Below are positions 20,657 to 24,931 of a DNA stretch of 64,000 bases, piece after piece. The notes beneath the pieces were generated by a model. The model ran no database searches, was not told where the DNA came from, and was given only the letters and a program-made list of their open reading frames with translations. Position 1 is the first letter of the stretch. Every line of letters begins with the position of its first letter. The position numbers were made by a program, and so were the translations under genes. The stretch covers positions 224,001 through 288,000 of the forward strand of contig BK006942.2 of NCBI GenBank assembly GCA_000146045.2. The letters are read 5' to 3'. The stretch comes from TPA_inf: Saccharomyces. Its lineage: Eukaryota.

Positions 20657-21559
20657 TCAATAGTCGGGCGCTTCTTTGGGAGCTGGTTGAGACTCTCGAG
20701 TCCGTGAGTTTCTAGATTTATATACAGAAGTAACAGCAGCAGTAGGAGTGGCGGCGGAGAGCAATGGCCTGTTTCCACGGTACCTCGCGTCCAATGTGGA
20801 ACTGCCGTATCTATCAGCGCTATATGCGGAGGAAGAAGTTTCCCTGCGTGGCAGCCTGGGAGCATAATTTCTTTCGGCGGGATTTGATGTACTTGCGCTT
20901 GCAAACCTTCCTGGAAGCCTGCTGTCTCTGTTGGAATAGCCTCTGCCTCCTAGGCCGCCGCCCAATCTTCTTGGCTTGAAATATTTAACGGTTCTGCCTC
21001 TTTCTATGTCGACTATGCAGATTCTGTCTTTGATTTGGATACCTCTGTGTACTCCAATCTCCTTGAATGCCATTTTACTACTTATTGGGTCTTTGAAAAC
21101 TATGAAGGCGTAGCCTTTACTCTTCTGGGTTATCTTGTCCTTGACTATCCTAATTTTTTCGATCTCGCCAAACTTAACAAAATACTTTTGCAGTTCAATT
21201 TCGTCAAGATCGTATGGTAGCCTCCCAATAAATATCGTTCTGTAGGGATCTGTGTCCTTGATATGAGGGTCAACGTTAGGATTCCAATTTTGTAGTCTCC
21301 GGTCTAACAATTGAGCATTTTTGATCTTGGAAAGTTTGATGTCTTCGTATCTTTGGAGATGGTTGTTTGGAGATCCTTCAGGAAACTCCTCCATATAGTG
21401 CTTCAAAGAGGTTGATAGTAAGTTTGCAACGCCAGTGATATTTGGATTTGTTTGTCTCTTCGCATATGGGTAATCGGTTGGTCTTTTGTAAGATAAAGGT
21501 GGCCTTGGCTTGAAAAGTCTCGACACGTCGTCTGGATACTTGGATAGATTATAATTCAT
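20657..21559 (-). CDS. SNP1: SNP1, U1 snRNP 70K protein (RRM: TIFIGRLPYDLDE...KGYAFIVFKD)
   Basis: ATG at 21559 gives 300 aa. The 301-aa tracked ORF starts one codon earlier at a TTG. Confidence 0.92.
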   Translation of the reverse strand: MNYNLSKYPDDVSRLFKPRPPLSYKRPTDYPYAKRQTNPNITGVANLLSTSLKHYMEEFPEGSPNNHLQRYEDIKLSKIKNAQLLDRRLQNWNPNVDPHIKDTDPYRTIFIGRLPYDLDEIELQKYFVKFGEIEKIRIVKDKITQKSKGYAFIVFKDPISSKMAFKEIGVHRGIQIKDRICIVDIERGRTVKYFKPRRLGGGLGGRGYSNRDSRLPGRFASASTSNPAERNYAPRLPRRETSSSAYSADRYGSSTLDARYRGNRPLLSAATPTAAVTSVYKSRNSRTRESQPAPKEAPDY

Positions 21560-22219
21560 CAAGGTTGAGGTGCCGATTACTTTTTTAAGGTTTCCTTTCG
21601 ACAGTCGATGACCGTGCTGTGTGTCATTATCTTGCAGTTCTTTTTTTCTTCAGATGCGTTAATTTCCTACGAAGGGCGCATACAATGGTGCTGATGGGAT
21701 TTATGAGCAAAACAAGTAGGCGAGCAAGACATGAACGAAATTGTAATGAAGCGTACTTCCTTTTCCCTACAACCTTAAAAAGGTCTCACTGATATATCCA
21801 TTCGCAATAATGACAAGATTTTTGCATGGGACTTCTTTTTTTCTTTTGAATAAGTCGCGTTATAAGGACAAAACATTAAAAAAAAATATGTATTGATTCA
21901 CTGATTTATATATACAGAAGTAAGTACCGGGGTACCTAAATATACGCATAAAAGTCTCTTTCTTTTTTTTTTTTTTTTTTTTAGCTTCCTACATTTCGTT
22001 AATAATATTATATAGATTATATTTATATTTAAGAAAAGTAATATCAGCATATTATGAATAGACAAAAAAGTCTAAGGTCAAGATTTATTAAATGTTAGAT
22101 TATTAAGATTACAATTAACAACATTTGTTGTTACTTCATAAAATTTCGTTACTTCATAAAAGAACTACAGTCCCCCACTTCTAAATGAGTGGTTGTAGGG
22201 GTTCATATACCTCCCATAC
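21520..22219. repeat. Copy A of a diverged direct duplication. It covers the SNP1 5' end, the SNP1 upstream region, and an RGI2-like 3' end. It is homologous to 23395..23945.
   Basis: Long colinear matches seen by eye, for example gcgttaatttcctacgaagggcgcatacaatggtgctgatg... versus gtgtttaattatctacaaagagggcacacacaatagagctgatg..., and taagtcgcgttataaggacaaaacattaaaaaaa versus taaggtcgcgttgtgacgacaaaacattaaaaaaa. Identity is about 70-75% by eye, not computed. Confidence 0.7.
22181..22219 (-). pseudogene. RGI2-like C-terminal fragment (...EPLQPLI-stop) truncated by the delta insertion
   Basis: The reverse complement of ctaaatgagtggttgtaggggttc reads EPLQPLI*. This is identical to the last 7 codons of RGI2 at 23902-23925. 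Confidence 0.5.
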
Positions 22220-22552
22220 TGTTGGAATAAAAATCAACTATCATCTACTAACTAGTATTTACGTTACTAGTATATTATCATATACGGTGTTAGAAGATGA
22301 CGCAAATGATGAGAAATAGTCATCTAAATTAGTGGAAGCTGAAACGCAAGGATTGATAATGTAATAGGATCAATGAATATTAACATATAAAATGATGATA
22401 ATAATATTTATAGAATTGTGTAGAATTGCAGATTCCCTTTTATGGATTCCTAAATCCTCGAGGAGAACTTCTAGTACATTCTACATACCTAATATTATTG
22501 CCTTATTAAAAATGGAATCCCAACAATTATCTCAAAATTCACCAACTCTTCA
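22220..22552 (+). mobile_element. Solo Ty1/Ty2 delta LTR, 333 bp (TGTTGGAATA...TCTTCA), flanked by a perfect 5-bp target-site duplication CATAC (22215-22219 and 22553-22557)
   Basis: Recognisable delta sequence including the Gag start ATGGAATCCCAACAATTATCTCA. A TSD is present on both sides. Confidence 0.9.
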
Positions 22553-22826
22553 CATACATACCTGCGGTAGCAAGATAGGTACACTTTTTCTACGTTTCAC
22601 GAAGGTAGCGATAGGTACCTCACTCATTGTAGGTGCGGGGGTAGCGATGGAGGTTTCTGTACCATTACCACCACAGCCACTATACTCACGTAGTGAAGTC
22701 CCTAGCGTGGAATTGTGTGGTATCGTTGCTATCTGTCGTTCGCCACCCTCGGTATATCCAACGTGCAGGCCAATATCACTCTCTAAGAAAATCGTATCAG
22801 GATTGGTACGGACAAACTCTTCATAG
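22392..22826 (+). CDS. YIL060W, a 144-aa ORF that initiates inside the delta LTR. Codons 41-48 are the Ty1 Gag N-terminus MESQQLSQ, and the ORF continues into flanking DNA. Likely an LTR-derived chimeric ORF.
   Basis: ATG verified at 22392. ORF is in frame with the LTR Gag ATG at 22512. YIL059C (22550-22915, minus strand) and YIL058W (22902-23198, plus strand) overlap or abut it and look non-genic. Confidence 0.4.
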
Positions 22827-23394
22827 CCTACGTCGAAATCAAATTCTGCTAAAGCTGTGACTGTAGTTAAACCTAAAACCGCGATTATTGCTTGAAAAAC
22901 TGTGGAGAAATTCATGATGGACGGTCACGTTCAGGGTCTGAGAAAACCACTCATTCCTATGTCCCATGTGGTTGGTTGCAATTTGCTGCTATATATACGA
23001 CTTGGCTGTAGAGAGATCTACGTAGGATGTGTCCACTATCAAGGGGGGTTTACCAACGTTATCTTCTATTTTAAGTGCTCAAATGAAGGTTGCATTATAT
23101 CCCTGGCAGTTTTCCCGGCAATTTTGCCGGCCGCTTATAATAGTCATGGTGAAAGGATTGTTGCTTGTTGTGGTTGCAACATGACAGTTGCCTACTAACT
23201 AAATAATAATCAAAGTCAGTTTCTCAACAATGGAAAACCTGTTGTGACCTTATCGAAGTAACAACATCGTATAATAATTAATCTGGAAAAAATACCATAG
23301 TTACTGCCGATACAGGTCTACGTGACTTACTGACAAACAGACTGAGTGACTACGAGTCCAGAAATTTAGTATACCATATTGTCGCTTCTTCTTA

Positions 23395-23435
23395 TAGCCC
23401 AGCTCCAGGTCTGGATACGGTTCTGTATAACTCGT
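23395..23435 (-). pseudogene. Decayed SNP1 N-terminal fragment with the start codon mutated to ACG; the YPD codons are retained
   Basis: Minus-strand ACCTTAACGAGTTATACAGAACCGTATCCAGAC aligns with SNP1 ACCTTGATGAATTATAATCTATCCAAGTATCCAGAC. Confidence 0.4.
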
Positions 23436-23945
23436 TAAGGTTTAAGTGTCCGGCAATTTTTTTGAAGTTTCATTTCTTCACTCGATGACCAAGCCGTGTG
23501 CCATCTTTTCGTTTTCTTTTTTTTCAATGTGTTTAATTATCTACAAAGAGGGCACACACAATAGAGCTGATGAGAACCCATGAGCGAAACAAGTAGAAAA
23601 GCAAGACGTAAACGGAATCATGGTGGTGTGTACATTTCTCTTTTTTTATTACACCAAGAAAGCTTAATTGGTACGTATTGTTCGTGATAGTAGCATGAAT
23701 CTAGCGTGGAATTCTTTTATTTAAGGTCGCGTTGTGACGACAAAACATTAAAAAAACCACATGTGTTGATTTGTAGACTTGTATACACTCCAGTAAGAAG
23801 GTGCACACCAAAATACATGCGCATATAAATTATTTTATATAGCATGCTATATTTCGTAAATTCATAAAATTTCGTTAATTCATAAAAACAGCTCCCCAAA
23901 CTTAGATGAGTGGCTGCAAGGGTTCTGTCTTGTAATCAACATCTA
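23395..23945. repeat. Copy B of the diverged direct duplication. It covers an SNP1-like 5' fragment, intergenic sequence, and the RGI2 3' end. It is homologous to 21520..22219.
   Basis: See copy A. The two copies are in the same orientation. Confidence 0.7.
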
Positions 23946-24396
23946 CCATTGCGCCATCGTGTTTACATACAACTTCGACAGACACCTTGAATTTCTTGGC
24001 GTTCAACTCCGTTTCTTCGCCATAATTCCAAACAATCCGGTCAAAGGATTCCTGCTTTTTCTTATCGTGGAATTTCAATTCTGGCTTGTTGATAGCGGTT
24101 TTGATGTCCTTTAGCAGGTGCTTCTCAACATGCTGGTGTAAATGGCGAACAAACTTCTTAGAGTGCGAATTGGCAGTCTCTTTGATCTTTTCCGGATCAT
24201 CATGCGCATCATGCAGGACAAAGGGTGGATAGTACTTCAGTTGGCAATGGACATGGTCGAACTCTTGATCTTCCGTCTCACCCTTTAAATATGTTTCAAA
24301 ATCATGCAAATCCTCAAAAACCTTTAAGGACTCACCACTTTTTGTAGTGATGGTGGACATCTTAGGACCCTTTGCTTTCTTATCCTTTTTCGTCAT
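23902..24396 (-). CDS. RGI2: RGI2, respiratory-growth-induced protein
   Basis: 164-aa ORF with ATG verified. Confidence 0.9.
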   Translation of the reverse strand: MTKKDKKAKGPKMSTITTKSGESLKVFEDLHDFETYLKGETEDQEFDHVHCQLKYYPPFVLHDAHDDPEKIKETANSHSKKFVRHLHQHVEKHLLKDIKTAINKPELKFHDKKKQESFDRIVWNYGEETELNAKKFKVSVEVVCKHDGAMVDVDYKTEPLQPLI

Positions 24397-24849: not shown

Positions 24850-24931
24850 GGCACTATGGCCGAGTGGTTAAGGCGACAGACTTGAAATCTGTTGGGCTCT
24901 GCCCGCGCTGGTTCAAATCCTGCTGGTGTCG
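24850..24931 (+). tRNA. SUP17: tRNA-Ser, anticodon UGA, with a long variable arm. Probably SUP17 / tS(UGA)I.
   Basis: Sequence GGCACTATGGCCGAGTGGTTAAGGCGACAGACTTGAAATCTGTTGGGCTCTGCCCGCGCTGGTTCAAATCCTGCTGGTGTCG. It has an A box TGGCCGAGTGG, a B box GGTTCAAATCC, an anticodon loop CTTGAAA, a foldable acceptor stem, and a downstream T-run terminator. Confidence 0.9.

Follow-up and report, generated by a model that had tools for sequence, protein, structure and literature searches.

The reading frame annotated as YIL060W on chromosome IX of Saccharomyces cerevisiae is a chimera of LTR and flanking DNA and not an ancient gene, and as annotated it is judged here to be an annotation artefact rather than an LTR-driven gene. 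Taken as a whole, the evidence makes it highly probable that YIL060W is a spurious antisense frame lengthened by the LTR and that YIL059C, on the opposite strand, is the real gene. For this reading, the LTR, its empty site, the insertion polymorphism and the anatomy of the ORF were established in the present analysis, while the asymmetry in translation and mass spectrometry (MS) detection is taken from the literature. The window referred to throughout is the whole stretch of DNA analysed, 64,000 nucleotides in length; adding 224000 to window positions 22550-22915 yields the published coordinates of YIL059C, chrIX:246550-246915 (PMC10721188, Table 1), which fixes the identity of the locus. Its features are the following.

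22215-22219, no strand: left target-site duplication CATAC, read directly; empty-site alleles have one CATAC only
22220-22552, plus strand: solo delta LTR assigned to the Ty2 type by its match to the LTR in contig L008, 333 bp, TG...CA
22220-22459: U3 of the LTR
22386-22392 (LTR nt 167-173): U3 TATA box, TATAAAA
22457-22462: XhoI site of the LTR, with the start of R at 22460 (equivalent of Ty1-H3 nt 241)
22512 (LTR nt 293): Gag ATG of the LTR
22553-22557, no strand: right target-site duplication CATAC, read directly
22392-22826, plus strand: YIL060W, annotated ORF of 144 aa from the ORF listing, ATG at LTR nt 173
22512-22826, plus strand: 104-codon sub-ORF from the Gag ATG, an ATG downstream of the nt-241 start-site equivalent
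22550-22915, minus strand: YIL059C, 121 aa, 366 nt, from the ORF listing, protein features and literature
23902-24396: RGI2-like ORF, a neighbour of the locus
24850-24931, plus strand: tRNA-Ser(UGA), at about 2.3 kb the Pol III gene closest to the LTR and so a context for Ty targeting (ARAGORN; Rfam RF00005)
A SNP1-like ORF (U1-70K) is a further neighbour of the locus.

The LTR runs from TGTTGGAATA at its left end to CAACTCTTCA at its right end (window 22220-22552) and has the termini (TGTTGG...CTTCA) and the length (333 bp, within the expected range of about 332-338 bp) of a delta element. A preliminary description of this DNA had placed it between identical CATAC pentamers, and this is confirmed to the base. 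The empty site, with a single CATAC and no LTR, is found in contig L001 and in three chromosome-scale assemblies of S. cerevisiae, L002-L004, and the uninterrupted site of L001, CCTCCCATACATACCTGCGG, equals exactly the window minus the LTR minus one CATAC. Because all four carry this exact empty site, the CATAC repeat is not a chance match. The same description took the element for a clean solo LTR whose 5-bp duplication is intact, which the empty-site alleles likewise bear out: the LTR is followed by the duplication, after which the sequence is collinear with that of the empty site, and no internal Ty sequence adjoins it. Since the duplication is intact and internal Ty sequence is absent, an origin by LTR-LTR recombination would fit. 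A second delta copy was not found within the 64-kb window by a repeat search with a 12-nt seed, which returned no repeats at all; further occurrences of TGTTGGAATA at 346 and 20929 were rejected as chance matches. An identical LTR copy with the same CATAC flanks is present in L009, and an Rfam search returned no match other than tRNA.

An LTR at L008 2602-2934 aligns with all 333 of the 333 nt at 99.1% identity (3 differences). Before it lies the 3' end of a Ty pol, and after it comes a gag ORF (PF01021 TYA) whose product is 100% identical to proteins named YDR034C-D-like. In P0021, the same LTR variant as at 22220-22552 runs into Gag sequence that is 100% identical to proteins named YDR034C-D-like and 95% identical to YDR261W-B-like. 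Both YDR034C-D and YDR261W-B are Ty2 elements by SGD nomenclature. The LTR of L005, whose Gag start reads MESQQLHQNPH, is 97% identical to the window LTR across the first 323 nt, and the same start is found on the Ty2-type Gag P0037. As the matching LTR is contiguous with a Ty2 gag, the LTR at 22220-22552 is, judged by sequence match in a comparison that included no labelled Ty1 LTR consensus, a Ty2-type delta and not Ty1. PMC10721188 names the LTR at YIL060W a Ty2 LTR, and SGD does likewise. The preliminary description had referred to a canonical TYA1 start at 22512, in frame with YIL060W. This ATG does lie in frame, 120 nt downstream of the ATG at 22392, and opens MESQQLSQ, but it is a start of the Ty2 type; in the same way, alignment confirmed a Ty delta LTR but not the Ty1 assignment.

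With other Ty1/Ty2 delta solo LTRs of S. cerevisiae the element shares the TG...CA ends, the length of 333 bp, the 5-bp duplication, the U3 TATA box, the start-site equivalent at nt 241 (XhoI), the Gag ATG at nt 293 and an insertion polymorphism between strains. Unlike typical delta LTRs, it lies inside the last codons of a coding gene and not in an intergenic landing zone, the tRNA gene being about 2.3 kb off. Its U5 variant opens MESQQLSQ, whereas the other Ty2-gag-linked LTRs sampled (the L005 LTR and P0037) open MESQQLHQNPH.

The insertion is young; it is present in S288C-like strains and missing from many other S. cerevisiae strains. The exact 144-aa YIL060W occurs on 16 chromosome-scale contigs and the exact 121-aa YIL059C in 28 blocks of the sequence collection (23 contigs read), and after the YIL059C stop the antisense LTR is matched base for base in eight of the ten contigs listed. 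The 124-aa form of YIL059C that goes with the empty site comes in at least 13 distinct variants, from many S. cerevisiae assemblies, S. pastorianus and VIN7, and a 160-aa allele is found in a second strain group or haplotype. Two database entries on this strand carry misleading labels or lengths: P0043, a protein of 124 aa from the YIL059C strand, bears the name "YIL060W-like" in VIN7, and P0001 (L001 1574-2002), a 142-aa "protein" from a contig whose real product is 124 aa, reads TGA as Trp, probably owing to a TGA=Trp code used by a metagenome gene caller. Assemblies L002-L004 also contain LTR insertions right beside tRNA-Ser(UGA) (L002 1739-2073; window junction 24838/24852). These are absent from the window, so that Ty insertion polymorphism at the locus runs in both directions.

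YIL060W begins inside the LTR, as had been described, with its ATG at LTR nt 173, and from this nucleotide to the end of the LTR the frame contains no stop codon. The ORF is split into 53.7 codons in the LTR and 90.3 in unique DNA. Codons 1-53 are LTR-encoded and codons 54-144 run antisense to YIL059C, so the earlier figure of about 90 codons of unique DNA was accurate, but their antisense relation to a gene had been overlooked. In the LTR-less alleles (L001-L004) the frame holds only a 59-aa ATG-initiated ORF within an open stretch of 97-99 codons, which falls below the 100-codon cutoff of the original yeast genome annotation. Conservation of the ORF independent of the transposon was not found: no homolog spans the unique part, and PMC10721188 reports a fully aligning homolog in no species. 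The database relatives of YIL060W (n=33) each cover at most 61% of the query, all at the LTR-encoded N-terminus only; past this part they continue into unrelated flanks or, in P0021, into Ty2 Gag, and YCL021W is among them. As only the LTR part is shared by the 33 relatives, the read-out frame is a generic property of this LTR type. Pfam gave zero matches for YIL060W, the 104-aa sub-ORF and YIL059C. Like other ORFs that open in a delta LTR (YCL021W; P0006-P0038 from strain annotations), YIL060W thus has the same LTR-encoded N-terminus followed by locus-specific, unrelated sequence. It stands apart by its unusual length of 144 aa, which it owes to a flank that is antisense to a real coding sequence, and by a "Verified" status gained via whole-ORF deletion phenotypes. 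When the codon order of YIL059C was shuffled, the antisense frame ran without a stop for at least 90 codons in 4.2% of shuffles (0.3% in random DNA) and for at least 47 codons, the number needed to pass 100 aa, in 23% (4.6% in random DNA). Given these frequencies and the large number of solo LTRs in the yeast genome, one long LTR read-out is unremarkable.

The YIL059C product has a signal peptide at residues 1-23 (cleavage after ...TALA and before EFDFD) with means of 1.6-2.0 in a 15-residue Kyte-Doolittle window and two N-glycosylation sequons, N68 and N84, from which we infer that it enters the secretory pathway. It also has a dibasic KR site at residue 107. In the LTR-bearing S288C background, ribo-seq gave 14 reads in frame per codon of YIL059C, at the 88th percentile among noncanonical ORFs, and one MS peptide, a single spectrum match, starts exactly at the TargetP-predicted cleavage site, E24 (PMC10721188). 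The same study found an intact YIL059C homolog in S. jurei, and put translation of YIL060W about 30-fold below that of the opposite strand, low but not zero, without MS detection. YIL059C is included in a list of lectin-binding yeast proteins, and its status was changed from Dubious to Verified in SGD R64.5.1 (2024).

The LTR sits 9 nt upstream of the natural YIL059C stop. The empty-site form of the protein ends in ...VCMGGI (124 aa) and the LTR-bearing form in ...VCM (121 aa), and the TGA stop used in S288C is made up of the three terminal bases of the LTR (22550-22552), read as their reverse complement. Most YIL059C alleles have an intact ORF, of 124 or 160 aa; truncated ones of 76, 94, 117 and 131 aa occur as well. 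YIL059C therefore looks dispensable, since truncated alleles exist, and it also looks young. A HMMER search of 1.84 billion representatives returned no YIL059C relatives outside Saccharomyces, apart from one repetitive 242-aa protein (E=1.9e-5) that is probably spurious, and an AlphaFold2 model built from an 8-sequence alignment was unusable (pLDDT 37.6, pTM 0.30). Polymorphism counts cannot discriminate between the two frames because the third codon positions of both fall on the same bases (window coordinate = 2 mod 3); synonymous/nonsynonymous counts against L002 are 6/4 in YIL059C and YIL060W alike.

The case for YIL060W is built entirely on deletions of the whole ORF (PMC10721188). A yil060w deletion takes out 277 of the 366 nt of YIL059C (76%), so the deletion phenotypes filed under YIL060W would most plausibly belong to YIL059C or to marker effects. 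The preliminary description had suggested the LTR or neighbouring promoters as their source, but YIL059C, which is translated, detected by MS, equipped with a signal peptide and largely removed by the deletion, is the better explanation. Wood et al. reportedly mentioned both YIL060W and YIL059C in 2001. A 2025 preprint proposes YIL060W as dubious, and the Sc2.0 synIX design deleted both ORFs. A closely similar case is YFR035C / YFR035W-A (Wacholder and Carvunis 2023), an antisense pair wrongly assigned in annotation, in which the longer annotated ORF is barely translated, the opposite ORF has ribo-seq and MS support, and deletion phenotypes cannot separate the two. What sets YIL060W apart from that pair is that its additional codons come from the LTR of a transposon.

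A Ty2-type LTR inserted 9 nt before the stop of YIL059C, at the cost of three residues, and it thereby supplied a new stop codon and, presumably, the start of the 3'UTR. The stop-free frame of the LTR, which extends from the U3 TATA box through R and U5 and includes the Gag AUG, is joined here to a stop-free antisense frame of YIL059C, with a 144-codon ORF as the outcome, longer than the real 121-codon gene. Early annotation practice applied a 100-codon threshold and favoured the longest ORF. Under this practice the chimera would have been called a gene, YIL060W, and the real gene "dubious"; PMC10721188 also suggests that the longer ORF was preferred. It appears that the spurious ORF could beat the real gene only because the Ty2 LTR had added 53 codons.

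The segment that carries YIL059C is flanked by diverged direct repeats (21550-22204 and 23426-23925) that are 68-77% identical and were detected by blastn only, the 12-nt-seed search being blank. Each extends between a copied RGI2 3' end and a copied SNP1 start codon region, so the whole RGI2-SNP1 intergenic region is tandemly duplicated around the YIL059C segment. The two repeats share 93% identity in L002-type strains, suggestive of gene conversion between them. At 23350-23550, a hypervariable patch in repeat A', S288C is about 85% identical to L001 and L002, and the flanking genes are 99-100% identical. Downstream of YIL059C, the L002-type haplotype (L002 4375-4879) differs from S288C by about 70 bp of extra homology to a chrVII copy described below, beyond which come 30 nt of poly(A) and the remains of an old LTR in inverted orientation, which match delta at 75% identity and directly adjoin the SNP1-proximal repeat.

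This chrVII copy is a paralog of the YIL059C segment, about 805 bp long and 75-79% identical, that occupies a chrVII-like locus, with MTC3/tRNA-Val on one side and VRG4 on the other; PMC10721188 makes no mention of it. It spans 351 bp upstream of the coding sequence, the coding sequence itself and about 70 bp downstream, and is present in L005 (3654-4433), L006 (326-1108) and L020-L023. In five of the six contigs it is a pseudogene, frameshifted, with the ATG out of frame and one or two stops. In L005 its central part has been gene-converted to the chrIX-like sequence; the ORF of this copy is 121 aa long, with the signal peptide destroyed. A third copy (L007 356-798), 71% identical and with ATG changed to ATA, lies on a synthetic-metagenome contig and ends beside a tRNA-Ser-like 5' fragment. 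Together with the chrIX segment these copies make up a small dispersed family. An LTR-like nature of the segment of about 0.8 kb was considered and rejected, its homology boundaries being fuzzy and TG...CA ends and duplications lacking. A tentative and on balance doubtful reading would be that the segment, with its promoter, coding sequence and short tail, is a mobile or repeatedly captured unit and not a resident gene, brought in, as its position between two diverged tandem RGI2-SNP1 copies would suggest, by a duplicative, possibly Ty-associated, event, and that the polymorphic LTR is a natural cis-variant of it. If true, the Ty2 LTR would change the C-terminus and 3' end of YIL059C and could drive antisense RNA into it.

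The preliminary description had interpreted YIL060W as an LTR-promoted, LTR-initiated chimera rather than an ancient gene. That it is a chimera and not ancient stands, the LTR-less frame being a 59-aa ORF, but promotion by the LTR does not. The YIL060W ATG at 22392 overlaps the tail of the U3 TATA box (TATAAAATG, 22386-22394; the Ty1 U3 has TATAAAAC at the equivalent site). In Ty1, transcription starts at the XhoI site (nt 241 in Ty1-H3). The corresponding window position, 22460, which is placed from the homology with Ty1-H3 rather than by measurement on the solo LTR itself, lies 68 nt downstream of the YIL060W ATG, and promotion of the annotated ORF by the LTR is thus excluded. Of the ATGs at nt 173 and nt 293, the internal one at nt 293 alone is downstream of the LTR start, and an LTR-initiated RNA could encode the 104-aa ORF from 22512 only. 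Initiation at this Gag ATG, which had been considered earlier, finds no support in published ribo-seq (PMC10721188). YIL060W resembles the LTR-promoted chimeric genes of mammals and plants, with their domesticated LTR promoters, in that a promoter-bearing LTR faces host sequence and provides an in-frame retroviral-type start codon; unlike them, it starts upstream of the LTR start site, and its read-through is antisense to a gene and not into an exon. It is very improbable that YIL060W is nonetheless a real, expressed protein from a young chimeric gene promoted and initiated by the LTR. Such a gene would agree with an ORF that is intact and identical on 16 assemblies, with an LTR that retains its TATA box, R-start equivalent and in-frame Gag AUG, and with a ribo-seq signal above zero. 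However, the annotated AUG precedes the LTR start site, translation is about 30-fold under that of the opposite strand with no detection by MS, the same LTR frame enters unrelated DNA at many other loci, and the ORF is missing in LTR-less strains and has no Pfam match. Furthermore, solo LTRs are without the downstream TYA activating sequences. U3 itself has been described as a weak promoter (PMC9283973). These objections apply equally to a true sense/antisense pair of overlapping genes with both strands functional; although the YIL059C and YIL060W frames are both open in S288C, chance could well leave the antisense frame open given the codon content of YIL059C (4% for 90 codons or more, 23% for 47 or more), and we give such a pair hardly any credence.

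It also seems unlikely that the solo LTR acts as a non-coding regulatory element, which would start antisense RNA at about 22460 and send it convergently into YIL059C, with the plus-strand ORF incidental, and which, by replacing the stop and 3'UTR of YIL059C, would cause expression to differ with and without the LTR. Its promoter does point into the 3' end of YIL059C, whose stop is LTR-derived, and as the insertion is polymorphic, natural allelic contrasts exist. However, YIL059C is well translated in LTR-bearing S288C, at the percentile given above, so interference is not strong.

Reading YIL060W as an LTR-lengthened, spurious antisense frame of YIL059C matters mainly for annotation hygiene. 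Doubt on YIL060W is already published and its substance is in SGD, and the understanding of Ty biology and of yeast gene content is unchanged. What is added to the published reassessment is that a strain-specific Ty2 LTR contributed 53 codons to the antisense frame, and that the same LTR gives YIL059C its stop in S288C. The phenotypes filed under YIL060W, namely those in plasma-membrane electron transport, glycogen storage, chemical-genomic profiles and loss of heterozygosity, would accordingly be re-read as effects of YIL059C or of the locus.
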